Shown one piece after another: positions 14,689-63,376 of a stretch of 64,000 nucleotides of DNA. This stretch comes from Gammaproteobacteria bacterium (lineage in GTDB: Bacteria; Pseudomonadota; Gammaproteobacteria; JAURND01). Both the position numbers and the translations under genes were made by a program. Position 1 is the stretch's first letter; each line of letters opens with the position of its first letter. Below the pieces are notes generated by a model. That model saw only the letters and a list, made by a program, of their open reading frames with translations. It had not been told where the DNA came from and did not search any database. The stretch spans positions 229,386 through 293,385 of the forward strand of contig DASZWJ010000019.1 of assembly GCA_035546635.1 (NCBI GenBank), in the 5' to 3' direction.

Positions 14689-14814
14689 CTAGGGCTGTAA
14701 GAGGAAAAAGTTAAGGCTGTAAGAGGCTATAAGAGATTGATGCCTACCCTAAAACATGGTTTAATGCCCTCCCTCAGCCTGGCTTTTGCCAGCATAATAT
14801 TATTTTAATTTTAC

Positions 14815-16743
<1,929 letters not shown>

Positions 16744-24536: not shown

Positions 24537-24647
24537 AAAGGGTAGGGTAAGCGAAAAACATAATTTTTTCTGAACCGAAAATTTTTAACTAATTTTAAAC
24601 AATAATATAATCTCGGTCTTCAATAAACTTTGGTGAAGAAAAAATAT

Positions 24648-33399: not shown

Positions 33400-33411
33400 A
33401 ATATAAGATCA

Positions 33412-34278
33412 CTATCGGTCATTTTTGTAACTGTTACTCTCTTCTGGTAATTGAGAGGAAGGCAGAGTTACTTGCAGTAATTTAATTCTACGTTTATCTG
33501 CATATAATACTTTAAACTCTAGATCGTCAATGCTAACTGTTTCAGAGCGCTTAGGCATATATCCAAAACTTTGAGCGACTAGACCACCTACGGTATCAAA
33601 TTCATCATCACTTAACGTTGTGTGAAAAAAATCATTAAATTCCTCGATGCGTGTCAAGGCTTTTACAGAATACTGTGAGCCACTGATTTGTTGAATATTG
33701 GTCTGATCTTCATCTACATCATACTCATCCTCAATTTCACCCACGATCTCTTCTAATACATCTTCAATAGTCAACATACCTGAAACACTACCGTATTCAT
33801 CGACAACAATCGCCATATGGTTACGGTTTTGGCGAAATTCTTCTAATAATATATTAAGCCTTTTACTTTCAGGGATGAAGGTGGCCGGTCGTAATATGTT
33901 GCTCATTTTAAATTCGGTTTCTTTATTAAAAGTAAATGGCAATAAATCTTTAGCCAGCAAAATACCCACTACTTCATCACGATTTTCTTTAATCACTGGG
34001 AAGCGTGAATGTGCGGACGAAATCACGGTAGGTAAAATCTCTTCCAGAGTTGAATCCAGTTCAATGACTACCATCTGTGATCGCGGAATCATCACATCCC
34101 GCACCTGCATCCCATGAACCTGAACGACTCCTTCAATCATGCGTATCGCTTCAGAATCTATTAAATGCTCATTAGCAGCATCCCGCAACCATTCCAGCAA
34201 TTCTTCAGGAGTTTTAGGACGCGAAAGCGCATGGCCTATTCGTTCTAGCCAAGATTTACTCGACGATTCACCACTCAT
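33412..34278 (-). CDS. corC: CBS-pair/CorC_HlyC domain Mg/Co efflux protein CorC (YbeX)
   Basis: 288 aa with a CBS pair (VRDVMIPRSQM) and a C-terminal transporter-associated domain. It is paired with lnt. Confidence 0.88.
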   Translation of the reverse strand: MSGESSSKSWLERIGHALSRPKTPEELLEWLRDAANEHLIDSEAIRMIEGVVQVHGMQVRDVMIPRSQMVVIELDSTLEEILPTVISSAHSRFPVIKENRDEVVGILLAKDLLPFTFNKETEFKMSNILRPATFIPESKRLNILLEEFRQNRNHMAIVVDEYGSVSGMLTIEDVLEEIVGEIEDEYDVDEDQTNIQQISGSQYSVKALTRIEEFNDFFHTTLSDDEFDTVGGLVAQSFGYMPKRSETVSIDDLEFKVLYADKRRIKLLQVTLPSSQLPEESNSYKNDR

Positions 34279-44740: not shown

Positions 44741-45637
44741 ATGAAATCCATTTCAAGATTAAGAATCGCCATACAAAAAAGTGGACGTCTCAATCACGAT
44801 TCGCTAGACCTTTTATATCGTTGTGGCCTTAAAATGCATACACGCGCAAATACCTTATTTTGTCATAGCGAAAATCTACCGATTGACATATTGTTTGTCC
44901 GAGATGATGACATTCCCACGTTGGTGATGGACGATATCTGCGACCTTGGCATTGTCGGTGAAAATGTCCTGTTTGAAAAAATACCGGCTTCAAGATGTGC
45001 CATCGACAATCCAAAGTTTACTATAGTGCAAAAATTAGGTTTTAGCCGCTGTCGTCTTTCCATTGCCTTGCCGGAAGAAATCCCATTTAGCCCTAAAACA
45101 CTGCAAGGACTGAAAATCGCTACCAGTTACCCCAATTTGCTGCAGCAATATCTCGATCAACACCAGATCAAGGCTGAGATCACAGTGATCTCAGGTTCCG
45201 TGGAAATTACACCTCGGTTGGGTATGGCCGATGCCATTTGTGATTTAGTTGCCACCGGTCAAACTTTAGAAGAACATAACTTAAAAGAGGTGGCAGAGAT
45301 TATTCAAAGTCAAGCTGTATTAATTAAAACGCAAAAAGACCTTAATCCACAAAAACTCGATACCTTTGAATTATTATTGCGCAGGATTAATGGTGTATTA
45401 AAAGCCCAGGAAAGCAAATATATTATGTTTCATGCGCCCTTAGCGCAGCTGGACAAAATTAAAAATATTCTGCCTGGCGCGGAAATGCCGACGATTATTC
45501 CTTTAGCCGGCACTACAGAAAAAGTGGCCGTACATGCCGTATCGACCGAAGGGGTGTTTTGGAGCACTTTGGAGAAGTTGCAAGAGGCAGGAGCCAGTTC
45601 AATTTTAGTATTACCCATTGAAAAAATGTTGAACTAG
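44741..45637 (+). CDS. hisG: ATP phosphoribosyltransferase (long form)
   Basis: This 298-aa protein is the first gene of the his cluster. It has LRIAIQKSGRL and the C-terminal regulatory domain. Confidence 0.92.
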   Translation: MKSISRLRIAIQKSGRLNHDSLDLLYRCGLKMHTRANTLFCHSENLPIDILFVRDDDIPTLVMDDICDLGIVGENVLFEKIPASRCAIDNPKFTIVQKLGFSRCRLSIALPEEIPFSPKTLQGLKIATSYPNLLQQYLDQHQIKAEITVISGSVEITPRLGMADAICDLVATGQTLEEHNLKEVAEIIQSQAVLIKTQKDLNPQKLDTFELLLRRINGVLKAQESKYIMFHAPLAQLDKIKNILPGAEMPTIIPLAGTTEKVAVHAVSTEGVFWSTLEKLQEAGASSILVLPIEKMLN

Positions 45638-45645
45638 GTGGCACA

Positions 45646-46956
45646 GTGCATATTCATTTTTGGAATCAGTTATCCGCAATAGAACAGCAAAATCTGCTGG
45701 AAAGACCTAAAGCCAGTCAACCTGACTCAATTCGGGAAAAAACCCAAGCAATTATCGATCAAGTAAGGGAAGAGGGCGATGCAGCGTTAATTGACCTCAC
45801 CGTCCTACACGACAAAGTAAAACTAACCCAATTAACCACTACTTTAGCGGAATTTTCAGCAGCAAAAAATCAAATCCGCAAAGAAGCGTTAGCCGCTATA
45901 GAGCGTGCACAACAGCAGATCACCACTTATCATCAAGCACAACAGCCTGAAATCCGCAAAATTGAAACTGCCCCAGGTATTTACTGTGAGCGTCAGCCAC
46001 GTGCCATTGACAGAGTAGGGCTTTATGTTCCAGGTGGCTCTGCCCCTTTGATTTCTACTTTGCTGATGCTGGCAATTCCAGCACAGTTAGCCGGTTGCTC
46101 ACTCAAAGTCCTCTGCACACCACCGAATAAAAATGGCACTATTGATCCACATTTGTTATATGCTGCAGAGCTGTGTGGTATTCAGCAAATTTTTAAAATC
46201 GGCGGAGCGCAAGCGGTCGCTGCGATGGCCTATGGCACTGAATCTGTACCGAAAGTTGATAAAATCTTTGGGCCAGGAAATGCTTTTGTCCTTGCTGCGA
46301 AAATGTTGGTTTCACAGGATGCCAAAGGTGCCAGTATTGATATGCCTGCTGGTCCATCAGAGCTCCTGGTGATTGCCGATGACAATGCCAATGCAGATTT
46401 TGTTGCTGCAGATTTGTTATCTCAAGCTGAACATGGGATTGATTCGCAAGTGATATTGCTGACCATGTCAGTAGATTTTGCTAACCAAGTTCATGGTGCG
46501 CTTAACCAGCAATTATCCCAGCTATCACGTCGCACAATTGCTGAGCAATCTTTAGCCCATGGCCGTATTATTGTCGTTACCTCTTTGGAACAAGCATTTT
46601 CTATTAGCAATCGTTATGCCCCTGAGCATTTAAGCTTACAAATAACCCACCCAGAGAACTTTCTCACAGAGATTCATAATGCAGGAGCCGTATTTTTAGG
46701 TGACTGGTCAGCTGAAACTATGGGAGACTATATCACCGGTTCTAACCATGTTTTGCCTACTTCAGGTTTTGCGCGCGCCTATAGTGGGTTATCTTTAGTG
46801 GATTTTATGAAGTTTATTAGTTTTCAAAAAGTCAGCCGCCCTGGGTTGCAAGCCCTTGGGCCATTTGCCGAACAATTGGCCGAGCTGGAAGGATTGGATG
46901 CTCACAGAAATGCGGTGTCTATTCGTTTGGGAGTTGACTTTCATCCTGAGCATTAG
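45646..46956 (+). CDS. hisD: histidinol dehydrogenase
   Basis: It has LLSQAEHG and GDYITGSNHVLPT. The start is GTG. The last codons (FHPEH-stop) lie inside family B repeat copy a. Confidence 0.93.
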   Translation: MHIHFWNQLSAIEQQNLLERPKASQPDSIREKTQAIIDQVREEGDAALIDLTVLHDKVKLTQLTTTLAEFSAAKNQIRKEALAAIERAQQQITTYHQAQQPEIRKIETAPGIYCERQPRAIDRVGLYVPGGSAPLISTLLMLAIPAQLAGCSLKVLCTPPNKNGTIDPHLLYAAELCGIQQIFKIGGAQAVAAMAYGTESVPKVDKIFGPGNAFVLAAKMLVSQDAKGASIDMPAGPSELLVIADDNANADFVAADLLSQAEHGIDSQVILLTMSVDFANQVHGALNQQLSQLSRRTIAEQSLAHGRIIVVTSLEQAFSISNRYAPEHLSLQITHPENFLTEIHNAGAVFLGDWSAETMGDYITGSNHVLPTSGFARAYSGLSLVDFMKFISFQKVSRPGLQALGPFAEQLAELEGLDAHRNAVSIRLGVDFHPEH

Positions 46957-47033
46957 TGAAGGATCTCCTTATGGTGGCACTAGCCACATGAAGTACCACC
47001 ATAAGGAGATCCTTCGTTTACGCTCAGGATGAC
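46940..47033. repeat. family B full-length palindromic element, copy a (hisD/hisC junction)
   Basis: The outer 11-bp stem is tcatcctgagc / gctcaggatga. The inner, perfect 20-bp stem is gaaggatctccttatggtgg / ccaccataaggagatccttc. The element contains the hisD stop codon (46954-46956). Confidence 0.9.
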
Positions 47034-47097
47034 AAAAAAATACAGCAACAGCCATATTAACAATTTAATACTTAAGAGCATCTTGAGTACACATATT

Positions 47098-48156
47098 ATG
47101 CCCAACCTAGCACATTTAATCAGACCTGACCTGCGCGAATTCACTGCCTACAGCTCGGCTCGTGATGAAGCTAAAAAGGGAGAGATTTGGCTCAACGCCA
47201 ACGAATCACCTTGGGAAAATGAGCATTTTGCCGAACAAAAAATTAACCGTTATCCTGAAAAACAACCACAAAAATTGATTAATGCGCTAGCTGAAATTTA
47301 CGGTGTTAAAAATAATCAGCTATCTGTATTGCGCGGTAGCGATGAAGCTATTGATCTATTGATGCGCTTATTTTGTGAAGCGGGAAAAGATGCCATTATC
47401 ACTTGTCCTCCGACTTTCGGCATGTATGCTGTCTATGCCAAATTACAAGGTGCAAAAATAATCGATATTCCTTTAGTGCCTGAAGCAGGTTTTCAATTGG
47501 ATATGAAAAATCTAGTAAACCAACAACACCTCGAAGTTAAATTGATTTTTCTATGTTCTCCAAATAACCCAACAGGTAATTTATTGTGCGAGGCAGATAT
47601 ACTACAATTATGCGAGCATTATGCCGGAAAAGCCGTGATTGTAGTTGATGAAGCTTACATAGAATTTTCCTCGGCAAACAGCCTGTCTCACTATATAGAC
47701 CAGTATGAAAATTTAGTGATCCTACGTACCTTGTCCAAGGCTTACGGATTGGCCGGTGCACGCTGTGGTTTATTATTAGGTCACAGCTTTATTATCAACT
47801 GGATAAAAGCGATTATGGCGCCTTATCCATTGCCGGCATTTACGATTCATGCCGTGACGCAAACACTCATGAAATTACAACGCCTTAAGCAACAGATTGA
47901 GACCATTAAAACGGAGCGCGAGCGTTTGGCTACTGAATTACAGCGACTGCCATTTGTTAAAAAAATCTGGCCAAGCGCGGCAAATTTTTTGTTGCTAGAA
48001 ACAGAAAATTCACAAAAAATTATGCAAGCGTGTATAGATTCCGGTATTGTACTACGCGATATGCACGGGAAATTATTTTTGCAAAACTGTATCCGAATTA
48101 CGGTTGGTACGCCTTTAGAAAATGCTCGCTTAATTGAATTTTTACAAACGTTATAA
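47098..48156 (+). CDS. hisC: histidinol-phosphate aminotransferase
   Basis: I trimmed ORF 47029.. to ATG 47098, because the upstream codons lie inside a repeat. The PLP-Lys context is LSKAYGLAGARCG. Confidence 0.9.
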   Translation: MPNLAHLIRPDLREFTAYSSARDEAKKGEIWLNANESPWENEHFAEQKINRYPEKQPQKLINALAEIYGVKNNQLSVLRGSDEAIDLLMRLFCEAGKDAIITCPPTFGMYAVYAKLQGAKIIDIPLVPEAGFQLDMKNLVNQQHLEVKLIFLCSPNNPTGNLLCEADILQLCEHYAGKAVIVVDEAYIEFSSANSLSHYIDQYENLVILRTLSKAYGLAGARCGLLLGHSFIINWIKAIMAPYPLPAFTIHAVTQTLMKLQRLKQQIETIKTERERLATELQRLPFVKKIWPSAANFLLLETENSQKIMQACIDSGIVLRDMHGKLFLQNCIRITVGTPLENARLIEFLQTL

Positions 48157-49242
48157 ATGAGTTTCTCAAACATGCCACAAGAAAAACTGCTTTTTATCGA
48201 CCGTGACGGGACTTTAATCGAGGAACCAGAAGATCAGCAGATCGATAGCATAGAAAAATTACATTTCCTGCCAGATGTCATTTCTAGTCTATTAAAATTA
48301 AAAACTGCCGGTTACAAATTTATTATGGTCAGCAATCAAGATGGCTTAGGAACTGATAGCTTGCCGCACGGAGATTTTCAGCCACCCCATGAATTAATGC
48401 TGCGTATTCTATCCTCTCAAGGCATTCATTTTGATGCCATACATATCTGCCCACATAAGCCGGACGCCAACTGTGACTGTCGCAAACCCAAAATCGGTTT
48501 ATTAGCGAATTATCTAATCGAACAAAAGATCAACCGTGAGCATTCTTATGTCATCGGTGATCGGCAGACTGATCTAGAATTAGCGCAAAATTTGGGAATA
48601 AAAGGCATCCGCATTCGCACCCCAACCACTCCAGGCTGGGCTGAAGTCGCTCACCAGATTCTATCTCAACCGCGGCAGGTGCAACTCATACGCAAAACTA
48701 AAGAAACTGCAATAGAAGTACAAATTGATCTTGATAAACCTAGTCCCATTCATATCCACACCGGTATCGGTTTTTTCGATCATATGCTGGAACAGTTAGC
48801 TAAACATGGTGGCTTCAGTCTAAAAATAACTGTTGCAGGGGATTTACATATTGACGACCATCATACCGTAGAAGATACGGCCATTACGCTGGGTGAAGCC
48901 ATGCGTGAAGCTTTAGGAGATAAAATAGGTATTGGGCGCTATGGTTTTTTATTGCCTATGGACGAAGCCTTAGCCAGGGTAGCCATTGATTTAAGTGGGC
49001 GCGCGCATTTAACTTTTAAAGCAGCATTTAACCGCGAGCGCGTGGGGGATTTATCCACGGAATTGGTAGAACATTTTTTCCGTTCTTTTGCCGAAGGATT
49101 AAAAGCGACATTGAATATTAAAGTAACAGGGGACAACACCCACCATATGATCGAATCAGTTTTTAAAGGCGTAGGGCGCGCCTTACGCCAGGCTATTGCT
49201 AAAACCGGGGATGATCTACCTAGCACTAAGGGTTTACTATGA
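48157..49242 (+). CDS. hisB: bifunctional histidinol-phosphatase / imidazoleglycerol-phosphate dehydratase
   Basis: It has the N-terminal HAD motif FIDRDGTL and the C-terminal IGPD motif DDHHTVEDTAI. Confidence 0.93.
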   Translation: MSFSNMPQEKLLFIDRDGTLIEEPEDQQIDSIEKLHFLPDVISSLLKLKTAGYKFIMVSNQDGLGTDSLPHGDFQPPHELMLRILSSQGIHFDAIHICPHKPDANCDCRKPKIGLLANYLIEQKINREHSYVIGDRQTDLELAQNLGIKGIRIRTPTTPGWAEVAHQILSQPRQVQLIRKTKETAIEVQIDLDKPSPIHIHTGIGFFDHMLEQLAKHGGFSLKITVAGDLHIDDHHTVEDTAITLGEAMREALGDKIGIGRYGFLLPMDEALARVAIDLSGRAHLTFKAAFNRERVGDLSTELVEHFFRSFAEGLKATLNIKVTGDNTHHMIESVFKGVGRALRQAIAKTGDDLPSTKGLL

Positions 49243-49850
49243 TTGCGATTATTGATGCCTGTGGGGCTAATTTCGCTTCGGTGGAATTTGCACTTAAACG
49301 CTTGGGGCGAGCAGTGACGCTCACGCGAGATAAAGACATCATTCGCTCAGCATCACATGTAATTCTACCTGGCGTAGGCACTGCCAGCCAGGCTATGCAG
49401 CAATTGGAAAATTTACAATTAATTTCAGTGATTCAGCAATTAACGCAACCGGTATTAGGTATCTGTCTTGGCATGCAGATTTTACATGCCCATTCTGCTG
49501 AAGGCGATGTGGATTGTCTAGGCCTTTTGCCAGGGGATATTAAGCCATTGCCAGAAGATCAGGGTTTACCTATTCCACATATGGGTTGGAATCAGCTATG
49601 CATCTCCCATGCGACCAGTTCTTTACTGCAGGATATCCCGAATAATAGCTACGTCTATTACGTGCATAGCTATGCAGCGCCAGTGACTGAGCATACCCTG
49701 GCTACCACCCAATACGGTGCAATATTTACGGCAGCAGTACATTATAAAAATTTTTATGGGGTACAATTTCATCCTGAGCGTTCGGGAGCGGTTGGCGCTA
49801 AGATATTACAGAATTTTCTTGTCCTGAGCGAAAGCGAAGGATCTCCATAA
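49239..49850 (+). CDS. hisH: imidazole glycerol phosphate synthase, glutaminase subunit
   Basis: It has GICLGMQ (nucleophile Cys) and FHPERS. The C-terminal tail (VLSESEGSP-stop) is encoded by family B repeat copy b. Confidence 0.92.
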   Translation: MIAIIDACGANFASVEFALKRLGRAVTLTRDKDIIRSASHVILPGVGTASQAMQQLENLQLISVIQQLTQPVLGICLGMQILHAHSAEGDVDCLGLLPGDIKPLPEDQGLPIPHMGWNQLCISHATSSLLQDIPNNSYVYYVHSYAAPVTEHTLATTQYGAIFTAAVHYKNFYGVQFHPERSGAVGAKILQNFLVLSESEGSP

Positions 49851-49911
49851 TGTGGCGCCTCATCATAAAAGTGCCATCATACGGAGATCCTTCGCTATCG
49901 CTCAGGATGAC
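49819..49911. repeat. family B full-length palindromic element, copy b (hisH/hisA junction)
   Basis: The outer 10-bp stem is tcctgagcga / tcgctcagga. The inner 13-bp stem is gcgaaggatctcc / ggagatccttcgc. The element contains the hisH stop codon (49848-49850). Confidence 0.9.
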
Positions 49912-49932
49912 AGTCAAGGGAAATAAACCTCA

Positions 49933-50676
49933 ATGAAACTATACCCAGCAATCGATTTAAAATCAGGAACCTGTGTCCGCCTTTACAAAGGCTCTTTTGA
50001 CCATGTCACTGCTTATCAAGCATCCCCCTTATCTGTCGCTGAAAATTTTGCCAGTGAAGGCGCAGATTTTCTTCACATCATTGATCTAGATGGCGCTCAA
50101 GAAGGCACCTCCAAACATACATCGTTAGTCTTAGATATTATTGAGAAAACTAGATTGAGCATACAATTAGGTGGCGGCATTCGCAGCTATGCACAATTAT
50201 CCCAATGGTTACACAATGGCGTCACTCGCGTTATTTTAGGTAGCATCGCTCTGTCCGAACCCGAGAAAGTGAACATGTGGCTGCGTGAATTTGGCGCTGA
50301 ACGCATTGTATTAGCGCTAGATATTAGAATGAATAGCGCCAATGAACCCATATTGGCATCACACGGTTGGCAACAAAATAGCGGCATGAGTTTATGGCAT
50401 TTACTTGACCTATATCAGGACAGCCCATTAAAACATGTACTTTGCACGGATATTGATTGCGATGGCACGTTGGCCGGGCCCAATATTTCCCTCTATCAAC
50501 AATGTAGCCAACGCTACCCAAACCTTGATTTTCAAGCCTCAGGTGGGGTCAGCTCCTTAGCCGATCTACGCACATTAGCACAAATGCAAGTTTCCGGTGT
50601 CATTGTCGGCAAAGCACTTTACGAGCGGAAATTTTCTTTAAGTGAAGCATTAATTGAGCTCAGCCATGTTAGCTAA
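49933..50676 (+). CDS. hisA: 1-(5-phosphoribosyl)-5-[(5-phosphoribosylamino)methylideneamino]imidazole-4-carboxamide isomerase
   Basis: It begins [15 protein letters not shown] and has the (beta/alpha)8 pattern GGGIRS ... GGVSS. Confidence 0.92.
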
Positions 50677-51433
50677 ACGTATTATTCCGTGCCTTGATGT
50701 AAAAAATGGCAAAGTTGTTAAAGGTATCCAGTTTCGTAATCATCAAATCATGGGTGATATTGTGGAATTGGCACAATATTATTGTCAGTCTGGCGCCGAT
50801 GAATTGGTGTTCTATGATATTACTGCCAGTGCCGATCAACGTGCTGTTGGGCGTGACTGGATTCGTGAGATTGCCCAACATTTAGATATTCCTTTTTGTG
50901 TTGCCGGCGGTATCCGCAGTCTTGAAGAAGCTGAAGCGGTACTAAATGCCGGTGCGGATAAAATCTCTGTTAATAGTCCGGCATTGGAAAACCCTGATTT
51001 GATAAACCAATTAGTCAAGGTATTTGGGCAGCAATGTATTGTGATTGGCATCGACAGTCTAAAAATCGACGACCGCTATAAAGTCTGCCAATACACCGGT
51101 AGTGAGTCTAAAACGCTGACCACAGTGCGTTATACGGAAGATTGGATCTGTGAGGTGCAAGAGCGCGGTGCCGGCGAAATCGTGCTGAACTGCATGAATC
51201 AAGATGGTATGCGTCAAGGTTATGATATAGAACAATTAACCCAGATGCGTGCTATTACTAAAACTCCCTTAATCGCATCCGGCGGGGCAGGCAATATGCA
51301 GCATTTTTTAAGCGTATTTCAAGAAGCACAGGTTGATGGCGCATTGGCGGCCAGTGTCTTTCACACCAAAGCCATAGCAATTCCTGAGTTAAAACAGTTT
51401 CTTTTAAACCATCATGTTGAGATCAGGCTATGA
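50666..51433 (+). CDS. hisF: imidazole glycerol phosphate synthase, cyclase subunit
   Basis: It begins [20 protein letters not shown] and has VAGGIRS and ASGGAG. I prefer ATG 50666 over 50654. Confidence 0.93.
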
Positions 51434-52032
51434 TAAATTTTGCCCCAGATGATTTGGCTTGGGATAAAATGCAAGGTTTACTGCCAGCTATTGTGCAAGA
51501 TGTGCATTCAGGTTCAGTACTGATGTTAGGTTATATGAACCGTGCGGCTTTACAACGTACTTTGGATACAAAATGGGTGACATTTTTCAGTCGCTCTAAA
51601 AATGCCTTGTGGCTAAAAGGTGAAACCTCGGGCAACAAGTTGCAATTAGTCAGCATAACCACCGATTGCGATCAAGATACATTGCTGATACTGGCTAACC
51701 CCACTGGGCCAGTTTGTCATACTGGATCATTAAGCTGTTTTGGCGAACAGCAAACAGATTGGGAATTTCTTAAACAGCTAGAAGCAACTATTGCTGCGCG
51801 TCAGCAGCAACGCCCAGAAAACAGTTATACCGCTCAATTATTTGCCGCAGGTATAAAAAGAATGGCACAGAAAGTCGGGGAGGAGGGCGTAGAAGTGGCT
51901 ATTGCTGCATTGGCTGAAGAGGATAGCAAGTTCTGCGAAGAAGGCGCTGATTTATTATTCCATCTATTGGTTTTATTACGTGCGAGAAATTTAAATTTGG
52001 CTGCCGTTATTGCTGCTCTGCGGACTAGATAA
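51430..52032 (+). CDS. hisIE: bifunctional phosphoribosyl-AMP cyclohydrolase / phosphoribosyl-ATP pyrophosphatase
   Basis: 200 aa with a cyclohydrolase half (GLLPAIVQD..., CHTG) and a MazG-like half ([10 protein letters not shown]). The start overlaps the hisF stop. Confidence 0.9.
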
Positions 52033-54265: not shown

Positions 54266-55201
54266 ATGAATATATTTATACCTGCTGCGGGATTTGGTTC
54301 GCGCTTATCCCCCATTACCTCCCGTATACCTAAACCTTTACTGCCTATTGTTGGCAAACCCTTGCTAGGATTATCGCTGGAAAAACTCAACCGCCTTAAA
54401 CCTAATCAAATAGGTATAAATCTTCACTATCTGCGCGAAGCCTTAACCCAATGGGTTGCGCATTCGCCGTTGCGCAATAAAATACAGCTATTTCCAGAAG
54501 AAACGATTTTAGGTTCTGGTGGCGCACTGAACAATGCCTATTCTTTATTGTGCCAAGATCACTTTCTGGTTTATAACAGTGATGTGCTATGTGATCTAGA
54601 TTTAGAATGGTTAATGCAACAACATTTGAATTCTGAAAACCTAGTCACACTCACCACCTGTCAGCACCCTAAATTTCCTCATGTTAAAGCGAATGTTGCT
54701 ATTAATTCTGAAGGTTTTTTTCAAGGCGTTGACAAAAAGCTTATTCCTTACGCTAAAGTAGCACAATACGTGGCTTATACCAGTATCGCGATGTATTCCC
54801 CTGAGTTTTTACAATTTTTACCTGCAGGAAAATCCAGTGTGCTAGATGCCTGGTTGACAGTAGCCGCCAAAGGTTATCGCATCGGCACCGTAGATATCAG
54901 CGCTTATGACTGGAATGATATAGGCACTCCTGCCGCCTATTTCTCAGCTGCTATGACTAATTTAAAAAGTACTGGTAAATCGGTTTATATCCATCCTTCT
55001 GCCAATGTCAATCGCACTGCGGTCATAGAAGGAGAGGTGATTATTGAAAGATATGCGGTAGTCGAGTCGGGGGTCAGTATTAAAAACTGCTTACTGCTAC
55101 CTGGTGCTGAGTTAATAAAAAACCGGCGCTATGAAAATAGTATCATAGGGCCCGGTTATGAGCTGCCAATGCTGTCATCCTTCGCTTGCGCTCAGGACTA
55201 A
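54266..55201 (+). CDS. sugar-1-phosphate nucleotidyltransferase with a C-terminal left-handed beta-helix
   Basis: It has the N-terminal NTP-transferase signature IPAAGFGSRLSPITSRIPKPLLPIVGKPLL and hexapeptide-like repeats near the C-terminus. It starts 14 bp after namZ. The last codons (FACAQD-stop) lie in a family B half-repeat. Confidence 0.75.
   Translation: MNIFIPAAGFGSRLSPITSRIPKPLLPIVGKPLLGLSLEKLNRLKPNQIGINLHYLREALTQWVAHSPLRNKIQLFPEETILGSGGALNNAYSLLCQDHFLVYNSDVLCDLDLEWLMQQHLNSENLVTLTTCQHPKFPHVKANVAINSEGFFQGVDKKLIPYAKVAQYVAYTSIAMYSPEFLQFLPAGKSSVLDAWLTVAAKGYRIGTVDISAYDWNDIGTPAAYFSAAMTNLKSTGKSVYIHPSANVNRTAVIEGEVIIERYAVVESGVSIKNCLLLPGAELIKNRRYENSIIGPGYELPMLSSFACAQD
55176..55199. repeat. 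family B right half-copy at the convergent gene ends
   Basis: atccttcgcttgcgctcaggact matches the right arm atccttcgctatcgctcaggatgac of copy b. Confidence 0.6.
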
Positions 55202-56775
55202 GAAACCAACGGTCGATTAAGATAGCGCGAAAATTTAGAGAAGCGCACTAAAAATTTATTATACAGAAAAATATTTATTAATTTTTGCTGCAAAGTATTT
55301 TTTCTTGATTCTTGACTTAGCTTCTTAATAACTACTTTTTCAAAATATTTAAGCTTCATTTCCCTTTTTGCTATCAATCCTTCAATTTCATTTAACCAAG
55401 GTCTTAAAGAATTATTCAGTTCAGCTGAAATGATTTTCTGCTCACCCTCGTGAAATAGCTTTAAAAACAGGCTAAAACTCCATTGTTGCGGGTGTGTTGA
55501 TAATATTCCCTGAATTAAATTTAAATAAATATCAGGATAATTTTCTGCCTTTAAGAACATAGGGCTCAAATTCCTGATCGTGACTATTTTTCTGTGAGTT
55601 ACTTCATAGATAAATACTAAAAATGCTAGAAAAATATTTTTAGGCACCATCACATTACGTGCTGCATCTTCAATAGCGCCAAAATCAATGAGCCGTACCG
55701 AACCCTGGGTAGAAATCAGCACATTCCAAACGCGTAAATCATTATGATAAAGACCATGCGCTTCCAAGGCGGCCAATTGTTCCAGAATGTCACCAATAAT
55801 CACATTAGGGTCATAATCCAGTCCCTTGATTATCATGGTGCTTAATAAAATCCCAGGTATTTTTTCACGCAACACCCAACCGCTGTCTTCATGCATTTCA
55901 AAACCCAACAAGCGCGGCAATACATGAGTCACCGAAAATCCACTTTGCAAAAATTTTATTTCACCTACAAGTTCTTCACGGTTGCTCTCTGCTTCATCAC
56001 CTGAGAGTTGAAAATTTTTAAGCATCGTATTAGTGGTAAAATAATAACGTCGTGAGTCTTTATGTGCATCATTCGTAAATTCATGTGAAGTATTAGTCCA
56101 TGAATCAAAATGCGTTAGCTCTTCATTAATATACCAATAATGATTGCTGCAAAAATAGATAGGACGCTGAATTTTTGACAGGTGGGTATGATGGTGTGAT
56201 ATTTGCTGAAAATAAGCAAATTGATCCAATAATTCATAGGGCTGGTCCGGTAGGGAAGTAGCCCATTTTTCAGGCTCTTCTCTAAGAGCGGTTTCGATAA
56301 GACAGGCTGCCGTTCTTTGTGCTAAAAGGCCAATGAAATTTCGAGTAGTCTCAAATCCGATGTGATGACACAGATGATGAAAAACGCTAAGTCCTATGAT
56401 TAAATCAAACTCTTTAATGGGCAAAGCGTCAATTCCGGCTACACAGTCAGCAACTACAAAAGTCGCAGGCAAGGACAAGACTTTAGATAACTCTGTGCAA
56501 AGCTCCACATTTTGCGGAACTATATCAATACCATATACCTCATCACCAACAGCTGCCAGGTTAAAACAGAAGAAACCCTGAGCGCATCCTATATCTAAAA
56601 TCCGCAATGGACGCTGCAACTCAGAACGCAATTTATCAGCAACACTCTGTACGATCCACCATCTATCATAACAGCTGCGCGATGAATTCCCATCAAATTC
56701 ATTAAAACCATAAATTGGTTGATAGATTTCTGGCAAATTACCAATTAGATATTTTATCTGTGAGTTCGATTCCAT
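55198..56775 (-). CDS. WbdD-like bifunctional protein: class I SAM methyltransferase domain plus eukaryotic-like kinase domain (paralogue 2)
   Basis: The MTase motifs are ILDIGCAQG, GID and DLIIGLSVFHHL. The kinase catalytic loop is HGLYHNDLRVWNVLI, followed by LIDFG (DFG). The C-terminal helical segment precedes the amphipathic/basic tail LINIFLYNKFLVRFSKFSRYL. The stop overlaps the stop of the convergent nucleotidyltransferase gene. Confidence 0.65.
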   Translation of the reverse strand: MESNSQIKYLIGNLPEIYQPIYGFNEFDGNSSRSCYDRWWIVQSVADKLRSELQRPLRILDIGCAQGFFCFNLAAVGDEVYGIDIVPQNVELCTELSKVLSLPATFVVADCVAGIDALPIKEFDLIIGLSVFHHLCHHIGFETTRNFIGLLAQRTAACLIETALREEPEKWATSLPDQPYELLDQFAYFQQISHHHTHLSKIQRPIYFCSNHYWYINEELTHFDSWTNTSHEFTNDAHKDSRRYYFTTNTMLKNFQLSGDEAESNREELVGEIKFLQSGFSVTHVLPRLLGFEMHEDSGWVLREKIPGILLSTMIIKGLDYDPNVIIGDILEQLAALEAHGLYHNDLRVWNVLISTQGSVRLIDFGAIEDAARNVMVPKNIFLAFLVFIYEVTHRKIVTIRNLSPMFLKAENYPDIYLNLIQGILSTHPQQWSFSLFLKLFHEGEQKIISAELNNSLRPWLNEIEGLIAKREMKLKYFEKVVIKKLSQESRKNTLQQKLINIFLYNKFLVRFSKFSRYLNRPLVS

Positions 56776-57124
56776 GGATTTTGCTCCTAAAATGTAACAG
56801 TCATATGAAAGAGGAAAGCAAGTTTCCCCTGAAACAGTGAGGAAGTTTTTACAAATCTTCTTGGATTGCCATGCTCTTAAAAAGAAGATGAACCATCCCT
56901 TTAGATTACAATGGTTTATTGTATGATATAAGTTTTCTTTAAGGAAATTAAAATTACAGTTTTTAGCTATCTTTAAATTTTTAATCGGTATGTAATCCTA
57001 TGACTTATTAAAATGTCACAATATTTTCAAATTTAATGTAACTTTAATTAGGAGTTGCAATGCTTTCTTTTCGTGTTCATCCTAGTAAAAGCAAAGGATA
57101 ACCCTATGAAAGTGCCATTGAGCA

Positions 57125-57153
57125 TTGCTAAAATCCACATACCGCTGTATAAT
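57125..57153 (+). promoter_or_regulatory. putative sigma70 promoter for the ABC exporter gene
   Basis: TTGCTA (57125-57130), a 17-nt spacer, then TATAAT (57148-57153), about 130 nt upstream of ATG 57285. Confidence 0.4.
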
Positions 57154-57284
57154 AAAAACTCATTTTTAACCCTCTCTAGGACGATTCAAATGATATTGCT
57201 TGGTTAAATCGCTCTCAGTAAGACCGGTCAATTCATTGCTATTTGGCTGGAATTTTATACATCGATTTTTTACCAGGTCATATT

Positions 57285-59048
57285 ATGAATCTGCCTACAT
57301 CAAATTTTGCCTTTATTTTTTACTTCGTCCGTCAACAATGGTTGCGGTTTCTAGCCTTATTCGCCATATCAATGGTTTGGGCGGTTAACGATGCGATGTT
57401 GCCTTATTTCTTGAAACGGATAGTCAATACTCTGCACGACTACACCGGCCCTCCACAAGGTGTCTATTTGGCAGTCAAGGGCATATTAATTATCTTACTG
57501 ATATTCTGGATCGTGACAGAAATATTAAATCGCATTCAAGGTATTAACCAAATTTATACTTTCCCACGTTTTCGCGCTAACATTCGCGCCTCGGTATTTA
57601 ATTACGTAAAATCACATTCTCATGAATATTTTTCCAACCAATTTGCCGGAAATCTCGCCAAAAAGCTGGCTGACTTACCGCACAGCTGTCAAAACATTAT
57701 GGAGATTATTTCCTTTCAATTTATTACAGCAACTGTAGGCATCAGCATGGTGTTGACCATGATGTGGCTTACCAAACCACTGTTTGCTGTGATTCTATTA
57801 ATTTGGCTCAGTTTTCATTTGGGATTAACCATCCTTATTTTACGTCGCGCTAACGTACTATATGAAACCCATGCTGAATCCGTTTCCGTATTAAGCGGAA
57901 AAATTGTCGACATATTTACGAATATTTTAAATGTGCGTCTATTCGCGCGTAGTCGATATGAATCCGAATATTTGCAACAATTCCAACAAGATGAAATCAC
58001 TAAAGCCAGAAAAGCCATGTGGCTAATTGAGTTAATGCGTATGGGTCTTGGAATAAATGGATTATTCCTCATATTCGGTATGATTTTTACTTTACTCTAC
58101 GGCTGGGCGCACGGTTGGGTAACGCTGGGCGATTTTACTCAAGTGAGTATGCAGTCATTCTGGTTATTAGGTTTGATTTGGTTCGTCAGTTTTCAAATGA
58201 CTGTGTTTGTGCGGGAGACCGGCACCATTAGCGATGCATTGAGTTTAATTAAAAAAAGCCACGATCTATCGGACACTGAAAATGCCCATCCTATTGCCAT
58301 TCCTTGCGGTCAAATCATTTTTAATCAGGTCACTTTTGGTTACAAAAGAAATCGTCCGATATTTCAAAATTTGAATCTTGTCATTCAACCTGGAGAGAAA
58401 ATTGGTTTAGTTGGATTTTCCGGCTCAGGAAAGTCTACTCTGGTGAATCTCATCTTGCGTTTCTACGACTTACAATCTGGTCAGATTTTAATTGATGGTC
58501 AAGATATCGCTAAAGTCAGTCAAGAATCTTTACGCGCTCAAATCGCCATGATTCCACAAGATCCCGCATTGTTTCATCGCAGCTTAATGGAAAATATCCG
58601 CTACGGCCGTTTGGATGCAACAGACGAAGAAGTCTTTAAAGCCTCAGAGCTGGCACACTGCCATGAGTTCATTGAAAAATTGGATTGTGACTATGAGTCT
58701 CTAGTCGGAGAACGCGGCATTAAATTATCCGGTGGTCAACGACAACGCATTGCCATCGCTCGCGCCATCTTAAAAAATGCGCCGATTCTAATTTTAGACG
58801 AGGCAACTTCTTCACTGGATTCAGTTACAGAAAAGCTGATTCAAGAAAGCCTGGAGCATTTAATGCAGGGTAGAACTACGATTGTAATTGCACACCGTTT
58901 ATCTACATTAGCTGATATGGATAGAATTTTAGTCTTTCATAAAGGAGAAATCGTCGAACAGGGTACAATTGCAAACTTACTGAATGTAAATGGCCACTTT
59001 GCGAAATTATGGCATATGCAATCCGAAGGATTTTTGCCAGAGAGTTGA
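57285..59048 (+). CDS. ABC exporter, fused permease/ATPase (MsbA-like, type I exporter)
   Basis: I trimmed ORF 57243.. to ATG 57285. A six-TM domain is followed by Walker A GFSGSGKST, signature LSGGQRQRIAIARAIL and Walker B ILILDEATS. Confidence 0.88.
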   Translation: MNLPTSNFAFIFYFVRQQWLRFLALFAISMVWAVNDAMLPYFLKRIVNTLHDYTGPPQGVYLAVKGILIILLIFWIVTEILNRIQGINQIYTFPRFRANIRASVFNYVKSHSHEYFSNQFAGNLAKKLADLPHSCQNIMEIISFQFITATVGISMVLTMMWLTKPLFAVILLIWLSFHLGLTILILRRANVLYETHAESVSVLSGKIVDIFTNILNVRLFARSRYESEYLQQFQQDEITKARKAMWLIELMRMGLGINGLFLIFGMIFTLLYGWAHGWVTLGDFTQVSMQSFWLLGLIWFVSFQMTVFVRETGTISDALSLIKKSHDLSDTENAHPIAIPCGQIIFNQVTFGYKRNRPIFQNLNLVIQPGEKIGLVGFSGSGKSTLVNLILRFYDLQSGQILIDGQDIAKVSQESLRAQIAMIPQDPALFHRSLMENIRYGRLDATDEEVFKASELAHCHEFIEKLDCDYESLVGERGIKLSGGQRQRIAIARAILKNAPILILDEATSSLDSVTEKLIQESLEHLMQGRTTIVIAHRLSTLADMDRILVFHKGEIVEQGTIANLLNVNGHFAKLWHMQSEGFLPES

Positions 59049-62593: not shown

Positions 62594-63376
62594 TTACGAC
62601 TCCTTAGCCATTTGCTCCAACCGACCCAATGTATCTTTATAAATTCTCGTGCTTATACCGAATTTGCTAGCAAAAGGATTGCTCAATATAAAGATAATCA
62701 TTAAGAGGGAAGTGATCGTGTAAATTAATGCTCCGGTTAAAACCATCTGCGCCCAAAGACGATCCATGCCAAAAAAATAAGAAATACCAACGACTACAAA
62801 TCCCAGCATAACCAGTAACATTAATGGATTTTCTAGTTTAGGTTGTGTAGCAATAAAAATTCTTAAGCGTCGATTTTCCCGCAATTTTGCTAAATGCTCT
62901 AAAGAGTTAGAATAAATAACCTGTTCTTTGGGTGATTGCACATCCATGTTCAAGTAAATTCTCTGTAATTTCTCAAGAATCTCTGCAACTTGTGGTTCTT
63001 CTTGGTGCCTAATCATTTTCGGCCATTCTTTGGTAATAATAGCGTCTGTGTATTCAATGAGCGTTTGTTGAATACTATTCCGAACTTCTGGTGAAAATCC
63101 CGGCGCCAGCTGCGCTAAAGTCAACAAATCAGTGGTTTCTATTTTAGCTTCCCTGTAACTTTCCCCAACCTCATTGAGTACCATAGAAAATGTAAACGCC
63201 AATACCACGGCATAAATTACGCCAATTTGCAAAAAAATAGGGAATGCCACTTCATGATGAGAAGTTAGAAAATGTAAAGCGACCCAATTTCTGATGACTG
63301 CCACTAAGGCTGAACCTATAATAGCCGCTAGAAGCGCAACACTGATAACGGGATACTGTGAAAAAAAATTCATCAA
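62594..63376 (-). CDS. hypothetical membrane protein (two N-terminal and two C-terminal TM helices around a soluble helical domain)
   Basis: A 260-aa ORF with a clear hydrophobic-segment pattern. It is possibly DUF4239-like, but that is recollection only. Confidence 0.6.
   Translation of the reverse strand: MMNFFSQYPVISVALLAAIIGSALVAVIRNWVALHFLTSHHEVAFPIFLQIGVIYAVVLAFTFSMVLNEVGESYREAKIETTDLLTLAQLAPGFSPEVRNSIQQTLIEYTDAIITKEWPKMIRHQEEPQVAEILEKLQRIYLNMDVQSPKEQVIYSNSLEHLAKLRENRRLRIFIATQPKLENPLMLLVMLGFVVVGISYFFGMDRLWAQMVLTGALIYTITSLLMIIFILSNPFASKFGISTRIYKDTLGRLEQMAKES

Follow-up and report, generated by a model that had tools for sequence, protein, structure and literature searches.

What does a WbdD-like enzyme do when it has almost no ruler and no transporter operon around it? 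WbdD is the textbook case of a 'molecular ruler': its coiled coil ties the termination of the chain to its export when polysaccharides are assembled by the ABC-transporter-dependent route. To our knowledge, nearly everything that is known of it comes from the enterobacterial enzyme within its operon. The window analysed here (the whole stretch of gammaproteobacterial DNA under study, 64 kb in length) carries two genes of this family, paralogue 1 and paralogue 2 (Table 1). An earlier, sequence-only reading had described paralogue 2 as a methyltransferase-kinase fusion with WbdD architecture, a short coiled coil and no O-antigen locus, and had proposed that it caps an unknown glycan.

Homology and catalytic residues of paralogue 2

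Translation of the gene gave the 525-residue reading frame and, at the exact coordinates, all of the motifs that had been quoted for it: ILDIGCAQG (residues 59-67), GID (82-84), DLIIGLSVFHHL (124-135), HGLYHNDLRVWNVLI (340-354), LIDFG (362-366) and LRPWLNEIEGLIAKREMKLKYFEKVVIKKL (457-486). In a phmmer search of PDB sequences, residues 7-469 matched E. coli O9a WbdD (E=2e-91), with about 35-37% identity over ~465 residues. For the AlphaFold model (pLDDT 89.8), the top five Foldseek matches were all WbdD (E 1e-41 to 1e-46, TM 0.83-0.90 normalised by target), and Ser/Thr kinases came next. The resemblance that had been drawn from domain order alone is therefore one of true homology, by sequence as well as by predicted fold. 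A search of 5.8 billion proteins returned only two close relatives, and a 100% identical copy of the protein was found in a gammaproteobacterial MAG.

The Pfam matches to class I methyltransferases (Methyltransf_31/25/11, residues 57-136, E 4e-10) were above the curated cut-off, and the match to Pkinase (residues 253-373, E 4e-7) was slightly under it, at 30.1 bits against 31.7. Y18, H133, H134 and R204 of paralogue 2 correspond to WbdD Y16, H132, H133 and R203, each of which is essential for methyltransferase activity (PMC3482155) and is conserved in 79 of 82 family members; these residues form a phosphate-methyltransferase signature that ordinary sugar methyltransferases do not have. The SAM-contacting R38 and D84 (WbdD R36 and D82) are retained, as are Y244, E272, D346, W350, N351 and D364 in the kinase domain (WbdD Y230, E274, D351, W355, N356 and D369). 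Paralogue 2 thus keeps every WbdD residue that mutagenesis has defined as essential for the methyltransferase or the sugar kinase, and an orthologue of 70% identity does likewise. All of the sugar-contacting and phosphate-binding residues of WbdD are kept as well; nearly all of them are at least 90% conserved across the family, with the exception of R270, which is variable (Leu being commonest) yet is Arg in paralogue 2 as in WbdD. The loop after the DFG motif is short, as in WbdD, and a protein-kinase-type activation loop is absent.

Among other kinase profiles, the Pfam Kdo/WaaP profile gave no match at E<=1, the NCBIfam KdkA profile matched only a 35-residue catalytic-loop stretch (residues 332-366, E=3.7e-4, 19.6 bits against a 142-bit cut-off), and the Pfam APH profile matched a 37-residue fragment (residues 330-366, E=0.007), under its cut-off. 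By sequence and predicted fold, paralogue 2 is a genuine WbdD relative with all catalytic residues intact, and, since they are complete, the proposed capping of an unknown glycan is the best reading of its chemistry.

Table 1. Features of the window discussed in the text (coordinates are those of the window; aa, residues of the encoded protein)
Feature	Coordinates	Strand	Basis or remark
Paralogue 1, same family, 522 aa	3712..5280	+	Kinase residues intact, methyltransferase catalytic residues all lost
Convergent sugar-1-phosphate nucleotidyltransferase, 311 aa	54266..55201	+	Pfam NTP_transferase; context only
Paralogue 2, complete WbdD-family gene, 525 aa	55198..56775 (stop codon included)	-	ORF, ATG start
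Basic C-terminal tail with amphipathic helix, aa 492-525	55201..55302	-	Hydrophobic moment, charge, model
Single long helix, heptad-like, aa 458-491	55303..55404	-	DSSP on AlphaFold model; HMMER alignment
Eukaryotic-like kinase domain, aa ~213-455	55411..56139	-	Pfam Pkinase and WbdD residue equivalents
N-terminal class I SAM methyltransferase domain, aa 1-212	56140..56775	-	Pfam Methyltransf_31/25/11 and phosphate-methyltransferase residues
AT-rich intergenic spacer upstream of paralogue 2	56776..57284	.	GC 31.7% over 56776-57242
Divergent MsbA-like ABC exporter, 587 aa from ATG	57285..59048	+	NCBIfam MsbA_rel 3e-111, under cut-off; context only

The C-terminal region

The WbdD ruler is a coiled coil of roughly residues 460-600 and ~20 nm (PMC5082667; for the ruler principle see also PMC11231755). 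Such an extended coiled coil is missing from paralogue 2, where only helices 458-491 and 495-512 precede the protein end at residue 525, so that ~70 residues follow the kinase, versus ~250 in WbdD. The first of these helices, 34 residues long as assigned by DSSP on the model, is all that remains of the ruler, and the earlier statement that the coiled coil is much shorter than that of WbdD holds. The HMMER alignment to WbdD extends to residues 469-472, inside this helix, whose N-terminal part appears from the alignment to be the counterpart of the trimer-forming helix alpha-V; W460, L461, K474, F478 and K484 do not vary within or between the two paralogue clades, whose overall identity is only 37%. 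In the tail, windows starting at residues 504-507 (spanning 504-524) have a hydrophobic moment of ~0.6 and a net charge of +5, no transmembrane segment was found, and the second helix is modelled with low confidence past residue 511. These properties suggest that the tail is probably an in-plane membrane anchor.

Paralogue 1 and the expansion of the family in this lineage

The second, divergent copy that had been reported ~50 kb away in inverted orientation is indeed there, as paralogue 1 shares 37% identity with paralogue 2 and lies ~51 kb from it on the opposite strand. It is not an equivalent duplicate, however, because every methyltransferase catalytic residue has been lost: paralogue 1 and its two orthologues are the only three of 82 family members without equivalents of Y16, R31, R36, H132, H133 and R203. 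Paralogue 1 follows ybeY, a position kept in two other assemblies.

The family has multiplied in this lineage, giving methyltransferase-dead, kinase-impaired, kinase-only and pseudokinase copies. For example, a MAG that belongs to this lineage, 5N005, whose RpsA is 83% identical, has three tandem WbdD-derived kinases directly upstream of a gene for a GT9 (family-9, LPS-core-type) glycosyltransferase, which overlaps the last kinase gene by 11 bp. A SIS-domain gene near tandem kinases (L042) was considered as GmhA, of heptose synthesis, and rejected, since it belongs to a housekeeping yraN (UPF0102)-SIS-BON arrangement, and the overlapping GT9 gene is therefore the sole glycan link that we count there. 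Mixed trimers are conceivable, though speculative, since the putative trimer helix and the tail are common to paralogues whose domains have decayed in complementary ways (methyltransferase-dead, kinase-impaired, pseudokinase).

Linkage to wzm-wzt across the family

The window was searched with phmmer and with Wzm and Wzt profile HMMs (from 29 and 34 sequences, respectively), and no wzm, wzt or WbdA-like gene came up. The only match fell in MsbA (26.3-28.1 kb), in its generic ABC ATPase domain, and scored 68 bits where true Wzt scores >400. The 6.8 kb past the right-hand end of the window held nothing glycan-related. The lack of these genes nearby, as first noted from the sequence, was thus confirmed. 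Nor did the profile HMMs find Wzm or true Wzt in four loci of relatives (L001, L003, L007 and L097), and WbdA-like genes were missing from the relatives' loci as well.

Co-occurrence profiling of homologue loci, which the sequence-only reading had proposed, showed that wzm-wzt adjoin 27 of 28 long homologues versus 4 of 12 short ones from other organisms (Fisher p=5e-5, for loci that are not phylogenetically independent). Separation from wzm-wzt was seen for one of the 28 long members and for all five loci of this lineage. Of the 150 best cluster representatives of the family, about one in four is a short form, so that shortness is not unusual by itself; what holds up is the combination of a short C-terminus with an unlinked locus, and this is a recurring pattern. 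Since 8 of those 12 short homologues likewise lack the linkage, short and unlinked WbdD homologues are a recurrent, unstudied class, and no study of unlinked or short WbdD-like proteins was found in the literature searched.

At the same time, four short homologues (L037, L039, L089 and L096; 512-564 aa) sit within genuine wzm-wzt clusters, and a short C-terminus is therefore compatible with ordinary O-antigen termination. As to the unlinked loci, one from an Alphaproteobacteria MAG (L026) is flanked by two GT9 genes and methyltransferases. This GT9 association concerns two, perhaps three, of about a dozen unlinked loci and was never seen for a full methyltransferase-kinase copy of this lineage; most unlinked loci (L010, L090, L091, L092, L093) have no sugar-related genes.

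A candidate role for paralogue 2

Our preferred, though tentative, reading is that paralogue 2 works close to the membrane, outside a wzm-wzt-polymerase operon, and caps a short lipid-linked glycan with methyl phosphate. The kinase domain would phosphorylate a hydroxyl of the terminal sugar of the glycan at the cytoplasmic face of the inner membrane, and the methyltransferase domain would then methylate the added phosphate, giving a methyl-phosphate cap that would block further extension. From the monomer model and the sequence properties, the conserved post-kinase helix would probably hold the protein as a trimer, and the basic amphipathic tail would probably attach it to the membrane. A helix of ~34 residues spans only ~5 nm, where E. 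coli O9a WbdD has ~20 nm, and would keep the catalytic heads near the membrane; the substrate would then most likely be a short glycan, whether a very short O-chain, an oligosaccharide of core type or some other envelope glycolipid.

The direct basis of this proposal is homology, fold, catalytic-residue retention, a short C-terminus and lack of linkage; what paralogue 2 actually catalyses, on which glycan and of what length, and that it forms a trimer and binds the membrane, we infer. We count in its favour the homology to WbdD, the essential residues, the helix and tail, the unlinked locus and the GT9 neighbours elsewhere. Against it, the gene's own neighbours are housekeeping or unrelated, neither a substrate nor a glycosyltransferase or transporter is linked to it, and we know of no biological role for a methyl-phosphate cap other than as the recognition signal for the carbohydrate-binding module of Wzt. 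More general, and doubtful, is the idea that WbdD-derived, ruler-less, membrane-hugging kinases and methyltransferases form a distinct class, arisen in this lineage and, independently, in some Alphaproteobacteria, which adds phosphate or methyl phosphate to LPS core or another short glycolipid of the envelope without recourse to Wzm/Wzt export.

The main alternative, possible but in our view rather unlikely, is that paralogue 2 is a classical terminator of an O-antigen or other ABC-transporter-dependent polysaccharide, with transporter and polymerase elsewhere in the genome and the short coiled coil setting a short modal chain length. The fully kept catalytic residues of WbdD, phosphate-methyltransferase signature included, would fit such a terminator, as would the four short homologues inside wzm-wzt clusters and the small part of the genome in view (64 kb plus ~7 kb). 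A Legionella sp. MAG, the sole Legionella with a WbdD homologue among the matches listed, has the canonical wzm-wzt-wbdD-wbdA arrangement, so that Gammaproteobacteria outside Enterobacterales and Xanthomonadales do use the system. But a separation that is the rare exception among long members is found in all loci of this lineage, a WbdA-like partner lies near neither copy, and the multiplication of the gene into decayed copies is unlike a dedicated single-copy terminator.

A change of substrate class, such that paralogue 2 phosphorylates and methylates a lipid head group, a small metabolite or a protein, we consider improbable. The expansion with decayed domains suggests functional drift, and the scarcity of sugar-related genes at unlinked loci agrees with it, but the WbdD sugar-contacting and phosphate-binding residues are all present, the short post-DFG loop is not that of a protein kinase, and the GT9 neighbours at two loci point to glycans.

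Still less probable is a secreted effector kinase/methyltransferase that targets a eukaryotic host, like the acquired enzymes of Legionella-like bacteria, even though the lineage is an uncultured, low-GC gammaproteobacterial one, a relative's MAG has ankyrin-repeat, Fic and LRR genes in the vicinity of WbdD-derived ones, and effector families commonly expand into paralogues that include pseudoenzymes. Secretion-system genes are absent from the window, and the conserved basic amphipathic tail is closer to the WbdD membrane anchor than to a translocation signal. A Legionella origin with a Dot/Icm effector had been suspected from GC content and gene style; it was downgraded because RpsA (ribosomal protein S1) is at most ~65% identical to that of any named genus, with no Legionella among the top 120 matches; the organism is not a Legionella. 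A survey of the Legionella kinome contains no WbdD-type effector, and its kinase-methyltransferase families are distinct from WbdD (PMC9758233).

Immediate neighbours

The surroundings of paralogue 2 are much as they had been described: the stop codons of the gene and of the convergent nucleotidyltransferase overlap by 4 bp (CTAA), and an AT-rich spacer, put earlier at ~510 bp, separates paralogue 2 from the divergent exporter, measuring 509 bp up to the ATG that an identical contig has as the called start and 467 bp up to the first TTG. The spacer presumably holds the promoter of paralogue 2. Its sigma-70-like matches are uninformative, since their number (12) is not above that expected from shuffled sequence (7.8 +/- 2.7), and no terminator-like site was found in the spacer scan. 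The neighbours are not conserved partners: the exporter is absent beside the 70% orthologue (P0002), which leaves a functional link to it (the idea of a PglK-like flippase) unsupported, and the namZ-nucleotidyltransferase pair recurs only beside that orthologue, where synteny with the window extends over the whole region, and is missing next to a relative of 55% identity.

These neighbours also underlie the least likely reading, a cell-wall sugar recycling operon in which NamZ frees N-acetylmuramic acid, the WbdD-like kinase phosphorylates it in place of AmgK and a MurU-like nucleotidyltransferase activates it, and which we rejected: namZ and the nucleotidyltransferase are directly downstream, MurU is the best NCBIfam match of the latter (1.5e-28) and the trio recurs beside the 70% orthologue, but MurU reaches 100 bits against a 250-bit cut-off and mannose-1-P guanylyltransferase scores nearly the same (1.3e-25, all under curated cut-offs), the genes are convergent and hence not co-transcribed, the 55% relative lacks the pair, AmgK is an APH-family anomeric kinase whereas an APH-type kinase domain is absent here, and a phosphate methyltransferase has no role in the MurNAc recycling pathway.

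Implications

The WbdD family thus includes a sizeable, unstudied subset that combines complete catalytic machinery with hardly any ruler and with loci where neither a transporter nor a polymerase is linked. Should these proteins cap short glycans or core oligosaccharides, then capping with methyl phosphate or phosphate would be a more general envelope modification than thought, and nature would have provided a test of the ruler model for the shortest rulers. The paralogues of the lineage, in which one activity or the other has been lost, already serve as naturally occurring separation-of-function variants. The practical impact is modest, given a host that has not been cultured and a chemistry that is probably already known.

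Comparison with known systems

The closest characterised relative is WbdD of E. coli O9a and Klebsiella pneumoniae O3 (PDB 4AZS, 4AZW, 4UW0), with which paralogue 2 shares the order of methyltransferase, kinase, putative trimer helix, helical region and probable membrane-binding C-terminus, the ~35-37% identity, the predicted fold (TM 0.83-0.90), the mutationally defined residues, the short post-DFG loop and the basic amphipathic tail. It differs in having one 34-residue helix in place of the ~20-nm coiled coil, no adjacent wzm, wzt, wbdA or manB/manC, Asn at the position of WbdD D350 (where Asn is the commonest residue in the family), and several diverged paralogues in its lineage.

Short homologues in wzm-wzt clusters, such as metagenomic P0034 (531 aa) and those of Methylomonas lenta (L039, 512 aa) and Citrobacter pasteurii (L037, 564 aa), are similar in length and have the same two catalytic domains, but lie directly downstream of wzt and beside polymerase-type glycosyltransferases, as paralogue 2 does not. 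The unlinked short proteins L010 (Rhodospirillaceae MAG, 523 aa), L026 (519 aa) and the metagenomic P0052, P0042, P0066, P0245 and P0246 (~485-566 aa, both domains), all uncharacterised, resemble it in having no wzm-wzt within the readable DNA, which reaches 10 kb to either side at GTDB loci but can be as short as 1.4 kb (P0246). They differ in forming a separate branch (in a neighbour-joining tree without bootstrap), in C-terminal tails that do not align with that of paralogue 2 and in the higher GC of their loci (49-56%).

WbdD of E. coli O8 and Klebsiella O5 is likewise an ABC-transporter-dependent O-antigen terminator and combines a class I methyltransferase domain with a coiled coil, but is methyltransferase-only, without the kinase and the phosphate-binding His-His/Arg signature (PMC3482155), both of which paralogue 2 has. 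The Legionella Lcin_0519 and Lani_1194/NoeA families also carry kinase and class I methyltransferase on a single chain, and Lcin_0519 is often next to wzm/wzt; by their authors' description, however, they are only remotely related to WbdD (PMC9758233), whereas paralogue 2 matches WbdD directly, so that membership of the Lcin_0519 family need not be invoked. The WaaP/KdkA LPS-core sugar kinases have no methyltransferase domain and no significant match to paralogue 2, but with a eukaryotic-like kinase fold that acts on LPS sugars at the membrane they offer a conceptual model for a membrane-proximal, non-polymer role.

Domains, fold and catalytic residues of paralogue 2

The translated ORF of paralogue 2 contains all the motifs quoted in the sequence-only reading, which had proposed a WbdD-like capping enzyme for an unknown glycan. 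In Pfam, aa 57-136 match class I methyltransferase models (E about 1e-10) and aa 253-373 a protein-kinase model, the latter slightly below the curated cut-off; NCBIfam has no dedicated model for the protein and returns weak generic methyltransferase and kinase matches only. The best match in a PDB sequence search is E. coli O9a WbdD (4UW0, 4AZS, 4AX8, 4AZW; E=2e-91), aligned as one block (query aa 7-469 against WbdD 5-474), with eukaryotic STE20-type kinases next at 1e-7. When an AlphaFold2 model made from an 82-sequence alignment (mean pLDDT 89.8, pTM 0.85) was compared with the PDB by Foldseek, the five WbdD entries ranked first (E 1e-41 to 1e-46, target-normalised TM 0.83-0.90), and protein kinases and small-molecule methyltransferases followed far behind, matching one domain each. 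The comparison with WbdD-type folds that the earlier reading had suggested as a check was thus positive for both domains; together, the PDB sequence search, the AlphaFold2 model and Foldseek indicate that each domain has the predicted fold and that paralogue 2 is a true WbdD homologue, not a look-alike fusion.

In WbdD, Y16, H132, H133 and R203 are each needed for methylating the sugar phosphate, and the His-His/Arg cluster is missing from ordinary sugar methyltransferases and from O8-type WbdD (PMC3482155). Kinase activity requires Y230 and D351, two magnesium ions are bound by N356, D369 and E274, and W355 stacks on Y230 (PMC3482155). A residue comparison in the 82-member WbdD family alignment found these essential residues to be identical in paralogue 2 (Y18, H133, H134, R204, Y244, D346, N351, D364, E272 and W350), each position being kept in 79-82 of the 82 sequences. 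WbdD D350 is replaced by Asn, the commonest family residue at that position, and the post-DFG loop is short, as in WbdD, with no protein-kinase-type activation loop. Given this conservation, we would expect paralogue 2 to phosphorylate a sugar hydroxyl and then to methylate the phosphate.

A short C-terminal region

The post-kinase region of WbdD, which starts with the trimer helix alpha-V (459-473), forms a coiled coil that keeps the catalytic heads about 20 nm off the membrane and sets chain length, while its C-terminal amphipathic part binds the membrane and recruits the polymerase WbdA (PMC3482155, PMC5082667, PMC11231755). This region spans ~250 residues in WbdD (same sources) but only ~70 in paralogue 2. 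The paralogue 2 model has a helix at 458-491, with 3-4 hydrophobic spacing and an N-terminal part that aligns to alpha-V, then a second helix at 495-512 and a low-confidence end; windows within aa 504-524 have a hydrophobic moment of about 0.6 and a net charge of +5, and no transmembrane segment was found in the C-terminal tail. Five residues of the region (W460, L461, K474, F478 and K484) are invariant across the two paralogue clades despite an overall identity of only 37%, which argues that the helix and tail are functional. Since the 34 helical residues would span about 5 nm, the active sites would lie near the membrane if the ruler principle holds. We tentatively favour a reading, at somewhat less than even confidence, in which paralogue 2, a WbdD-type enzyme and probably a trimer, would work close to the membrane and outside any wzm-wzt operon, adding a methyl-phosphate cap to a short lipid-linked glycan.

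Linkage to wzm-wzt across the family

The sequence-only reading had noted an absence of O-antigen transporter and polymerase genes nearby, and we likewise found no wzm, wzt or WbdA-like gene in the 64-kb window, either with phmmer queried with proteins of the E. coli O9 family or with profile HMMs of Wzm (29 sequences) and Wzt (34 sequences). The same searches found none within 10 kb on either side of the other copies in the lineage, and there were none in the 6.8 kb past the window's right-hand end (where the last called gene ends ~5.3 kb beyond it). The only matches were to generic ABC ATPase domains, with scores of 68-131 bits; real Wzt scores more than 400 bits.

As a control, we scanned one genome per GTDB species, which gave about 35 loci with full-length homologues among the matches listed. 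Among the homologues examined, wzm-wzt was adjacent to 27 of the long homologues (over 570 aa) and not adjacent to 1; for short homologues (570 aa or less) outside the window's lineage, it was adjacent in 4 cases (L037, L039, L089, L096) and not in 8 (L010, L012, L026, L090, the tandem pair L091, L092, L093, L094). In the 27 long linked loci, among them one in a Legionella sp. MAG (L034) and the enterobacterial plasmid copies, wzm-wzt lies directly upstream and a WbdA-like polymerase often downstream. The relation between length and linkage (Fisher p=5e-5) is descriptive only, as the loci are not phylogenetically independent. A neighbour-joining tree (no bootstrap) places the window's lineage on a branch of its own and groups the higher-GC unlinked copies with one another. 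When 1.84 billion cluster representatives were searched exhaustively with HMMER, 419 relatives were obtained at E<=1e-30; going by their listed lengths, roughly one in four of the best 150 is <=570 aa. Among the papers searched, none deals with unlinked or short WbdD-like proteins.

The main rival to the membrane-proximal capping enzyme is a classical terminator whose unlinked partner genes lie elsewhere in the genome; the short homologues found within genuine wzm-wzt clusters speak for it, and, judged from 64 kb of the genome, we regard it as rather unlikely, though a serious contender.

Neighbouring genes and other features of the window

The convergent namZ-nucleotidyltransferase pair described in the earlier reading is present (Pfam NamZ_N and NamZ_C; a nucleotidyltransferase of 311 aa), as is the 4-bp overlap of the stops. 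The nucleotidyltransferase scores about equally as MurU and as mannose-1-phosphate guanylyltransferase, both far below curated cut-offs. The same trio stands beside P0002, a 70% orthologue, but carries little functional weight because the entire region, from the his operon to an MFS transporter, is syntenic. As, in addition, the neighbours of P0003 (a 55% relative) differ and the MsbA-like exporter is missing beside P0002, we attach no functional meaning to namZ, the nucleotidyltransferase or the exporter. A changed substrate class is improbable, a secreted effector more so, and a role in cell-wall recycling with the NamZ and MurU-like neighbours the least credible of all, each having found little support.

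Paralogue 2 lies ~3 kb past hisIE, and in Klebsiella (L006) his has a wbdD-containing O-antigen cluster beside it in the corresponding position; as the two hosts are phylogenetically distant, this is probably coincidence. There is one Bestrophin-like gene at a distance of 6 kb from paralogue 2 and another immediately next to P0003, so the two loci may descend from one ancestral position. The GC content of the paralogue 2 coding sequence is 37.1% and that of its upstream spacer 31.7%, against 41.8% for the window, a mildly atypical composition that could reflect an old horizontal acquisition.

Elsewhere in the window, the miaB-phoH-ybeY-corC-lnt operon, which normally forms one block, is split in two: corC-lnt are on the other strand at a distance of about 30 kb. 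This implies that a segment with ends near 3.65 kb and 34.3 kb has been inverted. Its left end coincides exactly with the position of paralogue 1, and the order ybeY-paralogue 1-ftsK is common to two related assemblies. Neither of the two further ORFs in the table matches Pfam or NCBIfam; a related genome has a 550-aa unannotated gene at the position of the poly-serine ORF. The TPP riboswitch is the sole Rfam match within the window.

Coordinates of features in the window and at homologue loci
Feature	Location	Strand	Remarks
Paralogue 2 ORF	window 55198-56775	-	ATG start, 525 aa
Upstream spacer	window 56776-57242
his operon	window 44741-52032		convergent with paralogue 2
Bestrophin-like channel gene	window 62594-63376	-
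Split operon, left part	window 733-3613	+
Split operon, right part	window 31837-34278	-
Paralogue 1	window 3712-5280	+	522 aa
Poly-serine ORF	window 9240-10808	+	522 aa, long poly-serine tract, between rdgC and rne
484-aa ORF	window 24630-26084	+	polytopic look from translation, directly upstream of msbA-lpxK
TPP riboswitch	window 14810-14916	+	Rfam RF00059, 74 bits, upstream of thiC
Tandem short unlinked WbdD-like genes	L091 8001-11049		510 and 507 aa, metagenomic contig, no glycan genes nearby
P0003 locus	L003 1-14403		MAG MFD09286.bin.1.170, Fic-like and LRR genes
Bestrophin-like gene	L003 8624-9463		beside P0003
Tandem WbdD-derived genes	L042 9536-14807		MAG 5N005
WbdD-derived pseudokinase region	L049 9638-15080		MAG MFD09286.bin.1.170

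Paralogues in the window's lineage

A protein 100% identical to paralogue 2 occurs on a 307-kb contig of a MAG labelled 'Gammaproteobacteria bacterium'. In ribosomal protein S1, the identity is 93% with the genome that carries P0002 and P0123 (another homologue), 83% with MAG 5N005 and at most about 65% with named genera (Thiofilum, Aquisalimonas and others), with no Legionella among the best 120 matches.

Of the 82 aligned sequences, just three, paralogue 1 and its two orthologues, lack Y16, R31, R36, H132, H133 and R203. Since every kinase residue is retained, the three are predicted to be kinases with a dead methyltransferase domain, natural 'kinase-only' WbdD variants. In P0003 the methyltransferase signature is intact, but Y230, W355 and the glycine of DFG are gone, so that its kinase is likely impaired. 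MAG 5N005 has three tandem WbdD-derived genes (473/454/432 aa) whose methyltransferase region has decayed, and in the first of which Asn replaces the catalytic Asp; MFD09286.bin.1.170 has a 453-aa WbdD-derived pseudokinase (catalytic Asp to Lys). The helix and tail region of the window's paralogues is common to P0003 and to the copies in both MAGs. Eukaryote-like domains near these genes (an 815-aa ankyrin-repeat protein by the 453-aa copy, Fic-like and LRR genes by P0003) hint at a host-associated lifestyle for the lineage.

A family-9 glycosyltransferase (GT9) gene directly follows the 5N005 tandem copies, overlapping the last by 11 bp, and two GT9 genes and methyltransferases flank the unrelated, unlinked alphaproteobacterial homologue L026. 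GT9 is the LPS-core heptosyltransferase family, and its adjacency is the one clue to function, albeit a thin one, that recurs among unlinked copies.

Relation to characterised WbdD systems

The observation made from sequence alone was correct, and its interpretation broadly sound. What is new is a class so far undescribed, combining a short C-terminus with no linked transporter and recurring across phyla, and, in the window's lineage, an unusual paralogue set with complementary domain decay; for those who study polysaccharide assembly this is moderately interesting, and it overturns nothing. Paralogue 2 has the sequence, fold and catalytic residues of the WbdD family but lacks the extended ruler and operon context of the characterised systems, and we therefore file it as a family variant rather than as the O9a terminator's orthologue; its biology is probably a known chemistry carried out by a truncated enzyme with an unlinked gene.
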